Source: Paludibacteraceae bacterium
GTDB taxonomy: Bacteria; Bacteroidota; Bacteroidia; Bacteroidales; Paludibacteraceae
DNA length: 46,450 bases
Direction of reading: 5' to 3'
Assembly (NCBI GenBank): GCA_024399755.1
Contig: JAKSNN010000001.1
Location: forward strand, 1-46,450
In this document: positions 39,394-46,356 of the stretch, piece by piece
Position numbering within the stretch: the first letter of the stretch is position 1
Layout: each line of letters starts with the position of its first letter
The notes under the pieces: generated by a model
Seen by the model: the letters and a program-made list of their open reading frames with translations, nothing else
The model's database searches: none
What the model was told of the DNA's origin: nothing
Program-made: the position numbers and the translations under genes

Positions 39394-40212
39394 ATGCTTA
39401 ATGTCTCAATCGTCCTTTATCGTTCGGATATGGCGCAGGTGAATGCTCTGTGTCAGACGTTATTGCAGGCGGCTTCGGTGCGTTCTATTTACCTGATTGA
39501 CAATTCTCCGGTTGCGGCAACAGGCTTCCCTTCTGACTCGCGTGTGGTGTATCGTTGGAACGGGGGCAACAACCTCGGTTATGGCAGAGCCAATAATATC
39601 GCCATTCGTGAGAGTATCTACGATAAGGTGCCTTTTCATTTGGTTATCAATTCGGATATTGAGGTATCTGCGTCCGACTTGGATTATTTGCACGGATTTA
39701 TGCAGCATAACCCGAAGGTGGGCAGTTTGATGCCGCGGGTGGTAGGTGCGGATGGTCATTTGCAATATCTTTGCAAACTCTTGCCTACGCCGTGGGACGT
39801 GTTTGCCCGCCGTTTCTTGCCAAGAAGGTGGACGGAGCGTCGTAATGCGCATTATGAGTTACGGGCATCGGGGTATGATAAGATGATGAATGTGCCGTAT
39901 TTGAGCGGTTGTTTTATGTTGCTTCGTACGGAGGCTGTGTTGCAGGCGAGGTTGTTTGATGAGCGTTATTTCATGTATCCGGAGGATATTGACCTGACTC
40001 GCACGTTGCATCGTGACTGGTTGACGCTTTATGTGCCGGATGTGACGATAGTGCATCGTCATGCGCAAGCCTCGTATCATAGTTGTCGGATGCTTTGGGT
40101 ACATATAGTCAATATGTGCCGGTATTTCAATAAGTGGGGTTGGTTCTTTGATTCCGAGCGCACACTCATGAATCAACTCGCAAATTTACAGATAGAATAT
40201 CGAACCAACTAA
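39394..40212 (+). CDS. Family 2 glycosyltransferase (rhamnosyltransferase-like)
   Basis: MLNVSIVLYRSD..., IYLIDNSP and YPEDIDL. The ATG at 39394 is preferred over the GTG at 39367. The stop codon lies inside the first bases of repeat module B. Confidence 0.8.
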   Translation: MLNVSIVLYRSDMAQVNALCQTLLQAASVRSIYLIDNSPVAATGFPSDSRVVYRWNGGNNLGYGRANNIAIRESIYDKVPFHLVINSDIEVSASDLDYLHGFMQHNPKVGSLMPRVVGADGHLQYLCKLLPTPWDVFARRFLPRRWTERRNAHYELRASGYDKMMNVPYLSGCFMLLRTEAVLQARLFDERYFMYPEDIDLTRTLHRDWLTLYVPDVTIVHRHAQASYHSCRMLWVHIVNMCRYFNKWGWFFDSERTLMNQLANLQIEYRTN

Positions 40213-40329
40213 CGGAGCACTAACGGAGCACTAACGGAGCACCAACGGAGCACTCCGATACTTGACCGATACTTTGCCGATACTTGACTGACACTTTTTC
40301 GAAATGTTTTTTGCATCTTTTGCATCATT
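40203..40329 (+). promoter_or_regulatory. Upstream repeat module, copy B (4 x AACGGAGCAC(T/C) + 3 x CCGATACTTnn + TTGCATC motifs)
   Basis: 11-bp units at 40211-40254 and 40255-40287. It carries a 9-nt insertion (40286-40294) and a TTTTGCATC duplication relative to copy A. The module end lies 67 nt upstream of the -7 box. Confidence 0.75.
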
Positions 40330-40372
40330 TTGATTATATTTTTGCAAAAAAATGCTTAGAGTATCACAAATA

Positions 40373-40404
40373 TTTGCGTATATCAAATTTTTGTAGTACA
40401 TTTG
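40373..40404 (+). promoter_or_regulatory. Bacteroidota-type promoter for the lipoprotein cluster
   Basis: TTTG (40373-40376), 20 nt, TACATTTG (40397-40404). Confidence 0.6.
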
Positions 40405-40494
40405 CAGCGAAATTGGAGAATGTAGTGTTGTGGAAACCAAAAAATCCCCCCGGTTCTATAGTTCTCTGTTATTATAGATAATTTGTCAACGAAT

Positions 40495-40833
40495 AAAAAA
40501 CATTTATTTAATTATGAAAAAATTCTTTTTGGCACTGATGGCTGTAGCCGCCATCGCAATCGCAGGATGTAACAAGTCGATAAACGACCCGGAACCTCCA
40601 GAAAATAAGGAAGAAGTGCGAGGAATTTATCCCCCTTCTGAAGATTCTACGGTCGTTATAGTTAATGATGAAGTTCCTGATGACGGGAAGTAATCGTGCC
40701 CTTGTGGCTAAGAAATAACAAAGTTAAACAATAATCAAAAAAACATTTATTTAATTATGAAAAAATTCTTTTTGGCACTGATGGCTGTAGCCGCCATCGC
40801 AATCGCAGGATGTAACAAGTCGATAAACGACCC
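40495..40833 (+). repeat. Tandem duplication: identical 96-nt blocks at 40495-40590 and 40738-40833 (243-bp offset)
   Basis: Each block is 19 nt of leader plus 77 nt encoding MKKFFLALMAVAAIAIAGCNKSINDP. The sequences are unrelated after the block. Confidence 0.9.
40514..40693 (+). CDS. Small acidic Pro-rich lipoprotein (59 aa), copy 1
   Basis: Not in the ORF track (<60 aa). ATG 40514 to TAA 40691-40693: MKKFFLALMAVAAIAIAGCNKSINDPEPPENKEEVRGIYPPSEDSTVVIVNDEVPDDGK. Lipobox IAGC. Confidence 0.6.
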   Translation: MKKFFLALMAVAAIAIAGCNKSINDPEPPENKEEVRGIYPPSEDSTVVIVNDEVPDDGK

Positions 40834-40972
40834 TGTAGTAATTGACGACCTTGGAGCACCTGATAATATTATACCTCCTACGGATACCGATGGTGCAAAT
40901 CAGAATAGATGGGGTCTCGCTCCAGAGAGAATTCCTCTGCCAGTTACCTATACTGAAAACGACGAAGAATAA
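40757..40972 (+). CDS. Small acidic Pro-rich lipoprotein (71 aa), copy 2
   Basis: Same signal peptide and first 7 mature residues as copy 1, then the unrelated tail ...VVIDDLGAPDNIIPPTDTDGANQNRWGLAPERIPLPVTYTENDEE. Confidence 0.65.
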   Translation: MKKFFLALMAVAAIAIAGCNKSINDPVVIDDLGAPDNIIPPTDTDGANQNRWGLAPERIPLPVTYTENDEE

Positions 40973-40996
40973 TTTGCAAAAATTATGCGAAATAAC

Positions 40997-41022
40997 AAAA
41001 ATCGTCCTTCGGGGCGATTTTT
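40997..41022 (+). terminator. Rho-independent terminator/attenuator hairpin with a TTCG loop
   Basis: AAAAATCGTCC-TTCG-GGGCGATTTTT. The T-tract ends 11 nt before the next ATG (41034). Confidence 0.7.
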
Positions 41023-41033
41023 GTCTATTTGGT

Positions 41034-41981
41034 ATGAAGCGTGGGTGTTGGATATATCTGCTTTTCCTGTTCGTTGGAGTCAGTTGTGAGTCGCGAGTGA
41101 TTCCAATGCAACAAACTGCGACACGTCAGATTGTGATGTTTTCTGCCGTCAACGGACTGGGAGACCACGGCTATGTTGATTTGATTCTTTTTGGGGCGGA
41201 ACATGTCTATCTGAATTTGCCGAAGGATGTGCGTATGCTGTATTGCAACCCTACCACTTTTGAGGAAGCCGAACAGGCGGCGGATTACTATTCGCACGAA
41301 GGAGCAGCAGCATACGACAGCACGTTGATTGTTTTGGCAGGGTCGGATTATAAGCCCCTCGCAGAGAAATATATCCATGATTCCACGCTTAACCCAAATG
41401 TGGATATCCTTGTTTTTGAGGTGGACGAACTGCCGCAGGGCTATAACTCTGACCATGTAGCGGCGTTCTCCGTAGATATGTATTGGGGCAGTTACAATGC
41501 CGGTGTGAGTGTGGCTCAAATGGGTTTCCAAGCCCCGTTGATTTGGTTGGCTCGTGATGATGATTACATCTTGCAACTGGCTCGGGACGGCTTCTCTGAC
41601 GGCTATTATTCGATAACAAATGTGCACCCTGACACGGCGATGCTCAGTAACGACTGGCACGGCTACGGTATGCCCGACGTTACCTACCGGCAAATGGAGG
41701 AGAAAAGCAAGAAATATGATTTCATTTATCCCGTCATGGGCGGTTCTAATATGGGTATTTATCGCTATTTGCGTGAGCATTCGGATGGACCTAAAGTGGC
41801 AGGAATGGATGTGGATCAAAGCCAATATGCCTCTAATGTGATTGGCAGTTTGGTCAAACACATGGACCTGTTGGTAGAGAAGTATCTGAATAATTGGCTA
41901 AACCATATACCTTGGCAACGATATGAGAAAATCGAGGCGAATAGCGGTTATATTGAGTGGGTGCTTACTGGTGCTGAGTAG
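41034..41981 (+). CDS. BMP-family (PnrA/Med-like, type-1 binding fold) probable lipoprotein
   Basis: MKRGCWIYLLFLFVGVSC..., with the BMP-like motifs VNGLGDHGYVD and AGMDVDQSQ. The ATG at 41034 is preferred because the ORF-track N-terminus overlaps the small gene and the terminator. Confidence 0.6.
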   Translation: MKRGCWIYLLFLFVGVSCESRVIPMQQTATRQIVMFSAVNGLGDHGYVDLILFGAEHVYLNLPKDVRMLYCNPTTFEEAEQAADYYSHEGAAAYDSTLIVLAGSDYKPLAEKYIHDSTLNPNVDILVFEVDELPQGYNSDHVAAFSVDMYWGSYNAGVSVAQMGFQAPLIWLARDDDYILQLARDGFSDGYYSITNVHPDTAMLSNDWHGYGMPDVTYRQMEEKSKKYDFIYPVMGGSNMGIYRYLREHSDGPKVAGMDVDQSQYASNVIGSLVKHMDLLVEKYLNNWLNHIPWQRYEKIEANSGYIEWVLTGAE

Positions 41982-44046
41982 TTGGCTCCTGACATCATGC
42001 GAACGCGAGGAGCATTATTGTTCTGTTAGTGACCTCAGCGTGCGTAAGGTGGCTGTAGTCTTACCCTTTGAAAACGGTTTGCGTGAGCAATGGGAACAGT
42101 GCCTGAACCTCTGCAATGCCAATTTGCAGACGGCTTTTTGTTATGCCGGTATGGGGGTGAAATTGCAGTTTGAGTGGTATGACGAATCGACAGAGGACTT
42201 ATCTGCTTTAGGACAAAAACTCTTGGCGCGCAAGGATATAGTGGCTGTGATTGGAGGTCACCACTCGTCGTCAGCGATGCAGTTGGCATCGGTGTTGTGC
42301 AAAGGGGGAAAAAACCTTTTTACTTTGGGGACAGCCGGGCAATTGACGCGGGCATATTCGGCAACAGGCAATCTATGGGTAATGACCGAAACGGATGTTA
42401 CCGAGTGTGAGGTGCTGCTTAGTAAAGCCATACAATATGGAGCCAAATCAGTTGCATTGTTGGTCAACGGCGCAGATGTGTACGGTCAAACTTTCTTGGA
42501 CTGGTACGCGTTCCAAGCGACAGAGTTAGGACTGCAAAACAAGGGTACCTATTCCTATGACGGTAGTGAGGCACAGATTGCGCAGCAGACCAAAGCGGCT
42601 TTAGCGTCTGGCGCAGACTTTGTGTTGTGTGCTTCCAGTTCGGTGGAGGAACTGAAAACGGTGCTGAGTACGAAGCAATCCACACTGCATAACAACCGTA
42701 TGCTAATGGCAGAATCGGGGTTTGCGGGTAATGCTATCAGCGAGTTAGGTTCGTTGATGGAGGGTGTTGAGGGAGTGTGTTATGGTGCCGATCCTGAATC
42801 GGGATTTGATATAGCCTATCAGGCACGGTTCAATCGTTTGCCCTGCTTGGGCGAAGCGCAAGTATATGATGCAGCCATGCTGATTGCCTTTGCTTCGTAT
42901 GTGCAGATGCTCAATGAAGACCTCACATTCAAAAATGCCATGCGTCAATTGGTAGATGGTCGCGAACAGGGCAAGAGCAGTTGGCGGAGCGAAGACATGG
43001 TTTGGCTTGCGTCTATGCTGGCGAAAGGTGCGCATCCGGATATTAGTGGCGCTTCCGGTTCGTTGGACTTTGACGCAAGGGCTTATACCAACGTTCTGCA
43101 CTCGGTCTATTATAACTACTTGGTCTATCAACAAAAGTACATCTTTTTGGACTACAATACCACGGACGGCTCACGCCGAACCGACCCTACATTGGCATCA
43201 TGGAACTGGAAAAAGTCGCAAAAGCAGGATATCTCGTATGAGGGAGAGGAGCGTGTCTATCCTCCTTTGGATAAACGTTGGGCGTTGCTGGTAGCAGCCT
43301 CAAAGGGGTGGGAAAATTATCGCCATCAGGTAGATGTGCTTAATATCTACCAGATTCTCAAGAAACACGGTTATGACGATGACCATATCGTTGTTATCAT
43401 GGAGGATGACTTGGCGAAGAATGCGAATAATCCTGAACAGGGTGTTTTGTACTCGCGAATGGATGGCGTTAATGTCTATCAGAATGTGCAGGTGGATTAT
43501 CACCCCTCCCAATTGACCCCAAAAGATATTCCTGAGATTCTGTTAGGACATGCTTCGGAACGTTTACCGCATGTGTTGCGTTCGGATTCGGATGATAATG
43601 TATTCTTTTTCTGGTCGGGTCATGGTTCACCGGGTAAGATGTGCTGGCTCGATACATGGGAGGGAATTAAAAAAGACGATTTGGAAAAATGCCTCGCTAA
43701 ATTAGAGCAATCGGGGAATTACCGCAAACTGATTGGTTGCTTCGAGACATGCTATTCCGGCGGAGTAGCGGAAGCGGCAGATAACCATAATGGCATGCTG
43801 TTCTTCACGGCAGCCAATGCCAATGAGACATCTAAAGCGGACGAGTATAATTACAACTGGGATGTATGGATGAGTAATCGTTTTACCGCCACCTTGCAGG
43901 ACTGTATGATCAATTCCCCTACGCAGACGTTTGGCGAACTGTATAACCAATTATTTCTATCTACTGTTGCCTCGCACGTGTGTGTATTTGGTCATAAGGG
44001 GTTTGGCAGCCTGTACGAATCTAATCTGGGAGAAATTCTTAAATAG
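41923..44046 (+). CDS. Lipoprotein fusion: type-1 periplasmic binding domain + peptidase C13 (legumain-like)
   Basis: Signal/lipobox ...WLLTSC. The N-terminal half is LivK/ANF-receptor-like (VAVVLPFENG, IVAVIGGHHSSSAMQ). The C-terminal half has GWENYRHQ, a catalytic-type His in WSGHGSPG (43621-43623) and a Cys in FETCYSGG (43750-43752). Confidence 0.8.
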   Translation: MRKSRRIAVILSGCLLVLSSWLLTSCEREEHYCSVSDLSVRKVAVVLPFENGLREQWEQCLNLCNANLQTAFCYAGMGVKLQFEWYDESTEDLSALGQKLLARKDIVAVIGGHHSSSAMQLASVLCKGGKNLFTLGTAGQLTRAYSATGNLWVMTETDVTECEVLLSKAIQYGAKSVALLVNGADVYGQTFLDWYAFQATELGLQNKGTYSYDGSEAQIAQQTKAALASGADFVLCASSSVEELKTVLSTKQSTLHNNRMLMAESGFAGNAISELGSLMEGVEGVCYGADPESGFDIAYQARFNRLPCLGEAQVYDAAMLIAFASYVQMLNEDLTFKNAMRQLVDGREQGKSSWRSEDMVWLASMLAKGAHPDISGASGSLDFDARAYTNVLHSVYYNYLVYQQKYIFLDYNTTDGSRRTDPTLASWNWKKSQKQDISYEGEERVYPPLDKRWALLVAASKGWENYRHQVDVLNIYQILKKHGYDDDHIVVIMEDDLAKNANNPEQGVLYSRMDGVNVYQNVQVDYHPSQLTPKDIPEILLGHASERLPHVLRSDSDDNVFFFWSGHGSPGKMCWLDTWEGIKKDDLEKCLAKLEQSGNYRKLIGCFETCYSGGVAEAADNHNGMLFFTAANANETSKADEYNYNWDVWMSNRFTATLQDCMINSPTQTFGELYNQLFLSTVASHVCVFGHKGFGSLYESNLGEILK

Positions 44047-44090
44047 TTTCGATGCAAGTTCCATACACCATTAGAAAGGTGATATACAAG

Positions 44091-45107
44091 ATGACAAAGT
44101 TTCGATATATGTTTCTGTGCGCGATTCTTTTGCATGGATTCTTGTCCTGCGACCGGGACGACGATCCGACAAGACGTATTGCCGAAACCGGTGACGCTAC
44201 AGACATTACGGCATTTACCGCTAAAATTTCCGGTTATTGCAATCAAAAGAATGTTGCAGGACTATCTGTAACCTATGGAATAGAATATACCAATACAGAT
44301 CTTACAAGAAACGCTATCGTTCTGAATGCCTCTGAAATGGACGAGAAGGGTCGTTTTTCGGTTGATATTGAAAATCTGAATCCGGGAACAGAATATTTCT
44401 ACCGTACATTTGTCTTTTACAACAGGGCTTATTCATTCGGAAATGTGGAGAGTTTTACGACATTGGCGCATCCTGAGCCGGAAAAGGTGGACTTGGGTGT
44501 GGGCGTCAAGTGGGCTTCGTTCAACATAAGTGCACCTGCTCCTGCTGATTATGGGAAATATTACTCATGGGGAGAGATTAGAACCAAGTCCTTCTATGCA
44601 TGGGAGTCCTACCTGTGGAGTGCAGACGGAACGGAATCCAACATAACAAAATACAATTCTGCGGATAACAAAAACCGCCTTACCTCGGACGATGATGTTG
44701 CTACACACGAACTTGGCGGTTCATGGCGTATGCCTACCGCTAAAGAGTTTGATAAACTGGTTGCCGGTTGTTATTGGCAATGGTTTGAGAACTACAAAAA
44801 TTCAGGGATAAAAGGCTACGTGGTATTTAAGGCAAAAAATGATGGAGACCGGGGAAAAAGGAACTCTGAAACTATTTCTGCATCTTATTCGCCGGACAAG
44901 GATGTCCACATCTTCCTTCCGGCTGCCGGATATGCTTCAAAAGATGTATTTAGTGATATTGGAAGCAACGGCAATTATTGGACATCATCTCTTTCCCCTT
45001 CGACATCAAGCAGCGCTTATTACATCTATTTTGATTCCGAAAACATAGGGGTAGGTGAGTGCGAGAAACGCTATTATGGACAGTCCGTCCGTCCTGTCTC
45101 TGATTGA
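44091..45107 (+). CDS. Lipoprotein: Fn3-like domain + FISUMP/DUF1566-like domain, paralogue 1
   Basis: Lipobox HGFLSC followed by DRDDD. Fn3-like NLNPGTEYFYRTFV, then GVKWASFNI...YYSWGE...WRMPTAKEF...FLPAAGY...GQSVRPVSD. The ATG at 44091 is preferred. Confidence 0.7.
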   Translation: MTKFRYMFLCAILLHGFLSCDRDDDPTRRIAETGDATDITAFTAKISGYCNQKNVAGLSVTYGIEYTNTDLTRNAIVLNASEMDEKGRFSVDIENLNPGTEYFYRTFVFYNRAYSFGNVESFTTLAHPEPEKVDLGVGVKWASFNISAPAPADYGKYYSWGEIRTKSFYAWESYLWSADGTESNITKYNSADNKNRLTSDDDVATHELGGSWRMPTAKEFDKLVAGCYWQWFENYKNSGIKGYVVFKAKNDGDRGKRNSETISASYSPDKDVHIFLPAAGYASKDVFSDIGSNGNYWTSSLSPSTSSSAYYIYFDSENIGVGECEKRYYGQSVRPVSD

Positions 45108-45131
45108 CAAATCGAAAAACCATCAATCAAT

Positions 45132-46226
45132 ATGAAAAAAGTTATTTTATTAATGTGTCTTGTTGTCACGTTGGTTTCGTGTGAAAAATCCGATTTAGGA
45201 AACTCTGACATTGCCGAAACAGGTGTAGTCGTAGAGTTGGGCGCTTTTTCTGCCAAAATCCAAGGTGTTTGCCGACAAAAGCCGGAGAAGGCTTTGTCTG
45301 TCATCTATGGCATTGAATATTCTGAGAACGATCTCAACACCAATGCGACCGACGTTGAGGCAACACAAATAAGTGCTGATGGCAAATTTGACGTTTGCAT
45401 TGATGGACTGACGGCAAATACGTCATACTACTATCGTGCTTATGTGTTATTCAACAAAGTCTATTATTTCGGTGATATCAAGACTTTTGTCACGTCTTCA
45501 CACCCGCAGCCGGAAAAGGTGGATTTAGGTGTGGGCGTCAAATGGGCGTCATGCAACATAAGTGCCTCTTCACCGGAGGAAGTTGGAAAATATTATGCGT
45601 GGGGTGAGACTAAGCCCAAATCGTTTTATAGTTGGGGTACATACGTTTGGTGTAAAGATGGACAGGAACTGCAACTGACGAAATATGTTCCTGCTTCTGC
45701 TCCGGAATACTGGTTTGGCGATGGTCCCGTTGACAACAAACTCGTGCTTGATCCTGAAGATGATGTCGCCCGTAAGGAACTCGGCGATTCGTGGCGTATG
45801 CCTACTATTGAAGAATTTGGCGATTTGGTATCGGAATGTTTCTGGCAATGGTGTACCGACTACAAAGGTTCCGGCGTCCGTGGATATATTGTTTTCAAGG
45901 CAAAGACTCCTGAGGATAGGGGGAAGAGACAATCTCCGGAATATACGGAAGATATAGTGACGGGGGACTATTCCGTAGATAATGATGTCCACATCTTTCT
46001 TCCCGCTGCTGGGTTCCGTTGGGACGATGTTACGATGGGGGACAAAGGAGATGTGGTTTTGGGGTACTACAGATCGTCTTCTCTTCAGGCAGTAGGTATT
46101 CCCAATTATGCCAATGGTACTCCCAATTATGCAGTTGATATGTGTTTCAGTGTCTTCTATACAGATACTGCCGATTATTACGAGCGTTGTTTCGCAATGC
46201 CCATTCGGGCTGTAGCGGATTATTGA
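45132..46226 (+). CDS. Lipoprotein: Fn3-like domain + FISUMP/DUF1566-like domain, paralogue 2
   Basis: Lipobox TLVSC followed by EKSD. Same architecture as paralogue 1, with a divergent and longer C-terminal third. Confidence 0.7.
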   Translation: MKKVILLMCLVVTLVSCEKSDLGNSDIAETGVVVELGAFSAKIQGVCRQKPEKALSVIYGIEYSENDLNTNATDVEATQISADGKFDVCIDGLTANTSYYYRAYVLFNKVYYFGDIKTFVTSSHPQPEKVDLGVGVKWASCNISASSPEEVGKYYAWGETKPKSFYSWGTYVWCKDGQELQLTKYVPASAPEYWFGDGPVDNKLVLDPEDDVARKELGDSWRMPTIEEFGDLVSECFWQWCTDYKGSGVRGYIVFKAKTPEDRGKRQSPEYTEDIVTGDYSVDNDVHIFLPAAGFRWDDVTMGDKGDVVLGYYRSSSLQAVGIPNYANGTPNYAVDMCFSVFYTDTADYYERCFAMPIRAVADY

Positions 46227-46267
46227 TGTGTGCCACTTCGAACCCTCATAGTCCCCTCATAGATTTT

Positions 46268-46302
46268 AATCACCAATCACAAATAACAAATCACAAATCA
46301 AA
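46268..46302. repeat. 5 x 7-bp tandem repeat AATCACA-like
   Basis: Units at 46268, 46275, 46282, 46289 and 46296, the same family as 39248-39310. Confidence 0.85.
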
Positions 46303-46324
46303 AAAGCGCTTTCGGGCGCTTTTC
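46301..46324 (+). terminator. Rho-independent terminator closing the lipoprotein cluster
   Basis: AAAAAGCGCT-TTCG-GGCGCTTTT. Confidence 0.75.
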
Positions 46325-46325
46325 C

Positions 46326-46356
46326 TTGTATATATCCGAAATTTTTAGTACCTTTG
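46326..46356 (+). promoter_or_regulatory. Bacteroidota-type promoter for a gene beyond the window
   Basis: TTG (46326-46328), 20 nt, TACCTTTG (46349-46356). Confidence 0.55.

Follow-up and report, generated by a model that had tools for sequence, protein, structure and literature searches.

A conserved gene pair encoding a Bmp-fold lipoprotein and a binding-domain::legumain lipoprotein within a composite lipoprotein cluster of Bacteroidales

Introduction

Do six consecutive lipoprotein genes, preceded by a single recognisable promoter, constitute one system? This question is raised by the far end of a stretch of 46,450 nucleotides (nt), called the window throughout, which corresponds to positions 1 to 46,450 of the forward strand of contig JAKSNN010000001.1 from a Paludibacteraceae bacterium (GenBank assembly GCA_024399755.1). 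Six open reading frames (ORFs), named here G1 to G6 and all on the + strand, occupy positions 40514-46226 of this window. The original prediction, made from the sequence alone, presented them as a candidate for an undescribed surface sensing and processing unit. The comparison with other genomes leads to a different partition of the cluster. Unit 1 is composed of the mini-lipoprotein genes G1 and G2, a hairpin, and the genes G3 and G4, the last two being its invariant core; Unit 2 is composed of G5 and G6, which landed downstream. This composite architecture, in which two independently conserved units stand under one promoter, and the invariance of the G3-G4 pair can be put forward with high confidence. 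G3 encodes a lipoprotein with a Bmp/PnrA-type binding fold, and G4 a lipoprotein in which a second binding domain is fused to the catalytic domain of a legumain (peptidase family C13). The claim of a surface processing unit is accordingly defensible for this two-gene core, perhaps together with the mini-lipoproteins, and not for the six-gene set.

Conservation of the G3-G4 pair across Bacteroidales

Scanning a single genome for each species returned at least 519 loci containing the fusion encoded by G4, and 80 of them were kept for comparison (individual loci are designated L001 and so on). The kept loci span the Paludibacteraceae, Bacteroidaceae, Tannerellaceae, Rikenellaceae, Muribaculaceae and Prevotellaceae, and the Bacteroidaceae among them include Phocaeicola vulgatus ATCC 8482 (locus L047), P. 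sartorii, Bacteroides cellulosilyticus DSM 14838 (locus L045) and B. xylanisolvens. The criterion for a pair was a G3-like ORF on the strand of the C13 gene, with its end no more than 400 nt upstream of that gene. Of 86 loci, 82 have such an ORF directly upstream, or 82 of the 84 that are informative; among the four exceptions, two are cut by contig ends and two (L059 and L069) are truly devoid of a G3-like gene. Gene calls for the window, L004, L006, L008, L091 and L092 give an overlap of 14-59 nt between the two reading frames, the window itself showing the one of 59 nt. Two pairs with different flanks can be present in one genome, as illustrated by L012/L014 and by L065/L070. The co-occurrence that the original prediction proposed as a check is therefore found for the binder::C13 fusion and the BMP-like gene, and it fails for the mini-lipoprotein genes and the Fn3/DUF1566 pair.

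In Bacteroidota, surface export of lipoproteins is specified by an acidic consensus signal placed after the lipobox cysteine. G3 and G4 homologues often bear signals of the CSDD/CSSE type; by a count over 63 C13 homologues, 18 have no export signal, and many homologues have a strong one of the CSDD/CNDD type. Full-text searches of the literature, the coverage of which is incomplete, found no functional study of a C13 fusion in Bacteroidales, nor one of the Bmp-fold partner. The term "C13" encountered in a preprint on BSAP-1 (bioRxiv 10.64898/2026.08.05.742979) was discarded, as it designates a symmetry and not the peptidase family.

G5-G6 as an independent block

The boundary between the two units is directly visible at the nucleotide level. 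Positions 40991-44046 of the window are collinear with L001, L002, L003, L010, L091 and L092 (75-89% nt identity), and the homology ends at the stop codon of G4. Positions 44091-46226 are collinear with a different set of loci, L087, L089 and L090 (83-87%), and there the homology extends from the ATG of G5 to the stop codon of G6. The closest relatives of G4 (91% in L091, 87% in L092, 82% in L002 and 75% in L010) are not followed by G5 or G6, and convergent, unrelated genes are found in their place. Conversely, G5 and G6 are kept together in L087-L090, where they stand beside unrelated genes and do not adjoin a C13 gene. In MAG148, MJZ65_00195 is the homologue of G3, and MJZ65_04300 is a G5-like gene. 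In L087 and L088, a TACCTTTG motif, read by eye, precedes G5-G6 and is likely their own promoter; in the window genome the two genes are without a promoter motif of their own and are probably co-transcribed with the upstream genes. On the evidence of this distribution, G5-G6 is a separate two-gene unit and not part of the conserved system. With this block set apart, and with the mini-lipoproteins confined to the close relatives of the window, the six genes can no longer be maintained as one system.

G5 belongs to a very large family of at least 1835 relatives, many of them with a PF07603 match. Its own scores stay below the cut-offs, with 29.8 bits for Lcl_C (cut-off 34.9) and 26.1 for TIGR02145 (cut-off 41.65). 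G6 has no direct match to a DUF1566 or FISUMP profile, and is 49% identical to G5 over 300 amino acids (aa; E-value 1e-104). A public collection calls G5 as a protein of 332 aa starting at Met7; the start was kept at 44091, because the orthologues are 338 aa long and the nucleotide homology begins at 44088-44091. In L087 (2706-9137), the genes that come after G5-G6 encode an Inhibitor_I69/Peptidase_C10 protein of 952 aa and a giant protein (>2100 aa) with Ig-like repeats.

Composition of the cluster

The description of the six genes in the original prediction was accurate. The ORF ends and the gaps between them (63, 61, -59, 44 and 24 nt) match exactly, and a signal peptide with a lipobox cysteine is present in all six products (Table 1). 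Acidic residues right after this cysteine are indeed seen in G4 (CEREE), G5 (CDRDDD) and G6 (CEKSD); the export signal is weak in G1/G2 (CNKSIND) and in G3 (CESRV). The domain calls also stand: two type-I binding folds in G3 and G4, a C13 protease in G4 and DUF1566/FISUMP-like domains in G5 and G6, even if the direct matches of G3 to Bmp and of G5 to Lcl_C/FISUMP are sub-threshold. Pfam and NCBIfam scans agree with the reported absence of SusC/D, ABC (ATP-binding cassette) transporter and type IX secretion system domains in the cluster, and extend it to the eight upstream genes (MBOAT, CoaE, RlmH-like, NadC, DUF4886, DUF5715, UvrD and GT2). The SusC/SusD genes by which a polysaccharide utilisation locus is recognised are thus lacking from the six genes and the eight upstream. 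Scanning the window for Rfam families and tRNA genes gave no matches.

Table 1. Features of the lipoprotein cluster (window coordinates)
Feature	Position	Strand	Description	Basis
Second promoter candidate	40310-40344	+		pattern scan
Promoter candidate	40373-40404	+	Bacteroidetes type, TTTG-N20-TAcaTTTG	pattern scan
Repeated module	40495-40590	+	96 nt; 17 nt leader plus codons 1-26	repeat search
G1	40514-40693	+	59-aa mini-lipoprotein, Cys19	ORF
G2	40757-40972	+	71-aa mini-lipoprotein, Cys19	ORF
Internal hairpin	40995-41024	+	strong hairpin, candidate intrinsic terminator/attenuator	terminator scan and RNA fold
G3	41034-41981	+	315-aa lipoprotein, Cys18, Bmp/PnrA-type type-I binding fold	ORF, Pfam, model
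G4	41923-44046	+	707-aa lipoprotein, Cys26	ORF, Pfam, model
G5	44091-45107	+	338-aa lipoprotein (CDRDDD), Fn3-like N-terminal and DUF1566/Lcl_C/FISUMP-like C-terminal domain	ORF, sub-threshold profiles
G6	45132-46226	+	364-aa lipoprotein (CEKSD), G5 paralogue	ORF
3' hairpin	46302-46323	+	terminator-like hairpin 3' of G6, 9-bp stem	terminator scan and fold

G4, a binding domain fused to a legumain catalytic domain

Residues ~36-415 of G4 form a LivJ-like binding domain and residues 451-696 a legumain catalytic domain; the linker between them (419-450) is conserved, with Asp421, Asn428 and Asp436 among its conserved residues, and contains a low-confidence loop at 420-425. The Pfam scores are well above the cut-offs for both Peripla_BP_6 (PF13458; 74.3 bits, cut-off 31.7) and Peptidase_C13 (PF01650; 179.7 bits, cut-off 22.8, residues 452-694). 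A profile of the N-terminal domain finds its best PDB match in 3td9, a branched-chain amino-acid binder (E-value 5e-9), and the C-terminal domain matches human legumain with an E-value of 5e-36. The AlphaFold 2 (AF2) model, with a mean predicted local distance difference test (pLDDT) of 90.4 and a predicted template-modelling (TM) score of 0.85, is confident over 36-415, and its C-terminal domain superimposes on legumain with a TM score of 0.88-0.91 and a root-mean-square deviation (rmsd) of 1.8-2.0 A.

The catalytic Asn42, His148 and Cys189 of legumain correspond in the alignment to Asn465, His567 and Cys610 of G4, which are invariant in 46 homologues, as are the S1 residues Arg467, His468, Glu608 and Ser637. 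The Asn specificity of legumain is conferred by a zwitterionic S1 pocket made of Arg44, His45, Ser216 and Asp231. The position of legumain Asp231 is occupied by Asn652, also invariant. In legumain, Asp231 must be protonated for aspartate to be taken at P1 (PMC4357240, a review of clan CD). Its replacement by Asn652 might allow the enzyme to accept Asp besides Asn at neutral pH, so that G4 may cut after Asn and perhaps after Asp too. Neither an activation peptide nor a prodomain of the LSAM type (named for stabilizing legumain and modulating its activity) is present: G4 ends 11 residues past the catalytic domain, and its matches to prolegumain are confined to the protease domain. Hundreds of full-length homologues (~700 aa) are found in Bacteroidales; databases name them "ABC transporter substrate-binding protein", "C13 family peptidase" or "legumain".

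G3, a lipoprotein with a Bmp/PnrA-type fold

The Pfam Bmp score of G3 (23.4 bits) falls just below the gathering cut-off (24.1); its homologues are named as BMP family, and a precomputed PF02608 match exists for most of them. The AF2 model (pLDDT 90.2) adopts a PnrA-type fold. Its top PDB matches by Foldseek are PnrA, BmpD, Lbp, RfuA and Med, with TM scores of 0.65-0.74 (0.70-0.74 for PnrA and BmpD) and E-values down to 1.6e-13. The N-terminal G-x-G-D-x-G-Y-N of G3 resembles D-x-S-F-N, which we take to be the ligand motif of the Bmp family. The possibility that G3 and the N-terminal domain of G4 are recent paralogues was also considered, and rejected because the profile-profile comparison relates them in the signal peptide only.

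Promoters, hairpins and repeats

The promoter scan used the bipartite pattern TTTG-N15-23-TAnnTTTG; 1.5 matches would be expected in the window, and 13 are present. The single recognisable promoter of the original prediction was recovered, as 40373-40404 fits the pattern (40310-40344 does so too) and no bipartite match is found on the + strand of 40405-46300; the two lone TAnnTTTG motifs in this interval are both within coding sequence. A similar promoter module is present again in L001, L002, L003 and L092. Since copies of the segment 40368-40415, 84-89% identical, occur at several unrelated positions in relatives (three in L002, others in L001, L003 and L092), the module is generic to this lineage and not specific to the cluster. 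Two adjoining arrays of 11-nt tandem repeats, ACTAACGGAGC x4.3 and CCGATACTTGA x3.8, occupy 40208-40298, between the stop codon of the glycosyltransferase gene and the promoter candidates; the first array (ACTAACGGAGC) has no exact match in any of the loci fetched.

The claim that one strong terminator closes the cluster has to be revised, since the hairpin located between G2 and G3 is far stronger than the one at the 3' end. The internal hairpin has a 13-bp stem and a UUCG loop, is flanked by an A-tract in 5' and a T-run in 3', and ends 10 nt before the ATG of G3. Its folding energy is -27.3 kcal/mol (z -7.0), a value that none of 200 shuffled sequences equals, and it is unique within the window; the 3' hairpin reaches -10.9 kcal/mol (z -2.9). 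The internal hairpin is kept in L002, L003, L091 and L092, always between the last mini-lipoprotein gene and G3, with a variant loop and a retained stem in L091. In the predicted fold of the window sequence, the start codon of G3 pairs into the base of this hairpin, an observation from which no claim is drawn. A single operon would contain neither terminator nor promoter in its interior; here a conserved hairpin lies inside, though no internal promoter motif does. Because such a motif is missing downstream of it, the hairpin is read as an attenuator or partial terminator, by which the mini-lipoproteins would be expressed at a high level and G3-G6 at a lower one. Just past the 3' hairpin, in the region 46326-46356, a -7-type motif TACCTTTG at 46349-46356 probably marks the beginning of the next transcription unit, of which the rest lies beyond the end of the window.

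The mini-lipoproteins G1 and G2

The 96-nt module of G1 is repeated with 100% identity at 40738-40833, so that G1 and G2 share the same signal peptide and the same first mature residues. Beyond this common start, G1 contains the motif P-P-E-N (residues 28-31, nt 40595-40606) and G2 the motif A-P-D-N (residues 34-37, nt 40856-40867), both located 12-18 residues past the lipidated cysteine. Once the signal peptide and lipobox are set aside, an alignment of 11 related sequences has only two invariant positions, the proline and the asparagine of P-[EDV]-N (P29 and N31 of G1). The C-terminal peptide of G2, TDTDGANQN(R/K)WGLAPERIPL, is conserved.

These genes have a narrow distribution. They are limited to close relatives of the window (L001-L003, L091 and L092), and a related family, cl41, is present in L011 and L013. 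L091 carries an orthologue of G1 with 96% nt identity, and orthologues of G2 are found in L002 (66% aa) and L092; L091 has the G1 type only and L092 the G2 type only, the window having both behind the same leader. The mature G2 peptide gave four matches at E<=0.001 among 1.84 billion representatives, two of them in long repetitive proteins, and the family can therefore be considered as narrow. The presence of an invariant asparagine beside the gene of an Asn-specific protease is suggestive of a candidate cleavage site. That [PA]P[EDV]N might be a general motif of the lipoproteins near the pair was discarded, as 11 of 11 matches belong to the mini-lipoproteins or cl41 and none of 116 distant lipoproteins has it; because of this confinement, cleavage at P-x-N stays a hypothesis. 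In L011, a 540-aa lipoprotein encoded beside the pair (3-1625, - strand) begins with C-TKTEADPEAPEN; the linker motif that it shares with the mini-lipoproteins and cl41 suggests a shared or shuffled N-terminal module.

Neighbours of the pair in other genomes

The genes around the pair were counted over 87 loci, five of which are duplicates. As assigned by a crude caller, the lipobox frequency is ~0.6 at positions 1 to 2 on either side of the pair, against ~0.3 four or more genes away. Among the recurrent neighbours, a lipoprotein of ~190 aa whose representative is Cys-rich at the C-terminus is present in 28 loci, a cassette of three lipoprotein genes (~181, ~733 and ~306 aa) in ~14, a TPR/AraC-type regulator in 12, a Peptidase_C11 clostripain in 8, and MACPF lipoproteins that end in a weak FISUMP-like tail in 6. 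For the neighbour families a195, b306, c181, d733, e243, f295, x12 and cl41, Pfam and NCBIfam gave matches at the level of the signal peptide or below threshold only.

The MACPF lipoproteins (~750 aa, with a MACPF domain scoring 56 bits) adjoin the pair in L036 (5664-7895), L025, L044, L050, L061 and L065, and some of these loci contain three copies in a row. The AraC-type HTH and TPR protein, ~560 aa long, is encoded in L047 (12620-14299, - strand) and, within a few genes of the pair, in 11 other loci; it is a candidate local regulator. In Parabacteroides (L004/L005, 11816-16293), the island containing the pair also encodes an M15 peptidase, a C11 protease and two lipoproteins of ~190 aa. It is followed by genes for a hybrid histidine kinase, for a sigma-54 activator and for a member of the RteC family, and then by DUF6047 genes. 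This layout resembles the regulatory module of CTnDOT-type conjugative elements (RteA/RteB/RteC), so that the island may be mobile cargo.

Functional interpretation

The account favoured overall, a composite locus whose core encodes a processing protease, is considered as slightly more probable than not. Its mechanistic half, proposed by analogy, is more tentative and falls a little short of an even chance. G3 and G4 would form a lipid-anchored complex that in most lineages is probably surface-exposed. Its legumain domain would cut after Asn, and probably after Asp at neutral pH, in order to mature or shed lipoproteins, many of them encoded beside the pair; this role would be parallel to that of the lipidated C11 proteases fragipain and DpnB, which cut after Arg/Lys. 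The two binding-protein folds may stand in for the missing prodomain, either in regulation or in the recognition of a substrate or ligand. In the clade of the window, the mini-lipoproteins, with their conserved leader, invariant P-x-N and variable tail, would be the likeliest substrates, transcribed ahead of a hairpin that would lower the expression of G3-G4 and here also of G5-G6. A bolder version, which has to be regarded as unlikely, makes of the pair an order-wide, ligand-gated surface maturation protease or transpeptidase, each copy serving its own co-encoded cargo, with the mini-lipoproteins cut at P-x-N and releasing diffusible peptides.

Several observations weigh against the processing account. 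The export signal is weak on G3 and on the mini-lipoproteins of the window, and this copy could face the periplasm. The restriction of P-x-N to a single related family, the mini-lipoproteins and cl41, would also suit a linker or export feature. The internal hairpin might terminate transcription fully, in which case G3-G6 would need a promoter of unrecognised type. The lipobox enrichment comes from a crude caller, and the neighbour sets are heterogeneous, with housekeeping flanks in L008, L012 and L019, so that the neighbours need not be substrates.

The competing explanations differ in the part of the locus that they take as a unit and in the side of the membrane on which they place it. The view of the six lipoproteins as one integrated surface sensing and processing unit, expressed from a single operon, is very improbable and largely refuted by synteny. 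The common strand, the short gaps, the lipobox of every product and the lack of a promoter motif from G1 to G6 speak for it, as do the DUF1566-type lipoproteins found 3' of the pair in L085 and the related N-domains of L082. L085 is, however, the only locus with G5/G6-like genes in this position, L082 being linked to the family indirectly, and an occasional adjacency is expected from the very large size of this family; furthermore, G5-G6 are missing after G4 in all close relatives, are found elsewhere in four genomes with sharp boundaries, and are separated from G1 and G2 by the strong conserved hairpin that divides the cluster. A role in nutrient scavenging would reduce the pair to a legumain digesting host or dietary protein and to binders capturing the released amino acids, peptides or nucleosides, for delivery to a transporter whose genes lie elsewhere. 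The LivJ-like domain of G4, the proximity of G3 to the nucleoside binders PnrA and BmpD, and the database labels of both proteins as ABC substrate-binding proteins all point in this direction. Nevertheless, no linked ABC permease or ATPase is present in the window cluster or its flanks, and the 87 loci contain neither these nor SusC/D linked to the pair (two ABC ATPase-like ORFs were seen, neither of them adjacent). A binder tethered to the outer leaflet would moreover be unable to dock on an inner-membrane transporter, and the fusion of a protease of narrow specificity, tightly coupled to a second binder, suits regulation better than bulk digestion; scavenging is consequently given a low probability.

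Slightly less credit still is given to a periplasm-facing complex devoted to housekeeping proteolysis, in the quality control of the envelope or of lipoproteins, and unrelated to its neighbours. The weak signal of G3 in the window, the 18 C13 homologues devoid of one and the location of the pair amid housekeeping genes in several loci are compatible with such a function, which is difficult to reconcile with the strong CSDD/CNDD-type signals of many homologues, with flanks enriched in lipoprotein, toxin and protease genes, with the RteABC module beside the pair in L004/L005, and with genomes in which two copies have different flanks. The most improbable proposal is that of a transpeptidase or ligase comparable to GPI8 or to the plant peptide asparaginyl ligases, which would join a cleaved substrate, such as the C-terminal peptide of the mini-lipoproteins, to a surface acceptor or cyclise it. 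Family C13 does include transamidases and ligases, which score 80-116 bits against G4, and the mini-lipoproteins look like leader-plus-core precursors placed before an attenuator; the best matches and the fold are nevertheless those of hydrolytic legumains, and the mini-lipoproteins are restricted to one clade when the pair is order-wide.

Comparison with known systems and significance

If the six-gene system dissolves, the order-wide pair remains a good target for experiments. Should it prove to be an Asn/Asp-specific surface enzyme, a second cleavage specificity would be added to surface proteolysis in gut Bacteroidales, together with a handle on many lipoproteins without assigned function. 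If ligand-gated maturation were also true, it would represent a way, so far unrecognised, of producing secreted peptides, signals or antagonism factors, parallel to C11 fragipain/DpnB. For annotation, G3 and G4 should not be called "ABC transporter substrate-binding proteins".

The arrangement of Unit 1 recalls the nisA-type lantibiotic operons by its duplicated small genes with identical leader and divergent tails, its hairpin and its protease gene. The mini-lipoproteins are, however, lipoproteins and not cytoplasmic leader peptides, and neither modification enzymes nor an exporter is encoded, so that the resemblance is an analogy only. G3 has the fold and the lipid anchor of the Bmp/PnrA family (PnrA of T. 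pallidum, BmpD of B. burgdorferi, Med of B. subtilis), from which it differs by an identity of only ~15%, by the absence of an ABC partner and by the coupling of its gene to a protease gene. The case of Med illustrates that the Bmp fold can serve signalling instead of transport.

The catalytic domain of G4 is of the same fold as eukaryotic legumain (MEROPS C13; human enzyme, PDB 4aw9 and 5lua), with a TM score of ~0.9, an rmsd of ~1.9 A and ~30% identity, and conserves the catalytic Asn42, His148 and Cys189 as well as the S1 residues Arg44, His45, Glu and Ser216. It differs by the lack of activation peptide and LSAM, by an N-terminal lipobox followed by a LivJ-like domain of ~380 aa, by the invariant Asn at the S1 position of Asp231, by its Bmp-fold partner gene, and by its bacterial, extracytoplasmic setting at neutral pH. 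The unusual construction of G4, in which a binding-protein domain replaces the legumain prodomain and a Bmp-fold partner is encoded alongside, can be compared with the C11 proteases of Bacteroidales, lipidated and anchored at the surface, by which toxins are processed and the secretome is shaped (bioRxiv 10.64898/2026.08.05.742979; PMC11169675). Like fragipain (Fpn) and DpnA/DpnB, G4 is a clan CD cysteine protease lipoprotein of gut Bacteroidales, and C11 genes adjoin the pair in the 8 loci mentioned above; it is distinguished from them by its C13 family, by an expected P1 residue of Asn/Asp and not Arg/Lys, and by the fused binding domain and partner gene. The protein families concerned are already annotated in databases, and the pair is a variant among lipidated clan-CD surface proteases and legumains, which adds a second clan-CD lipoprotein, of family C13, beside C11 in gut Bacteroidales.

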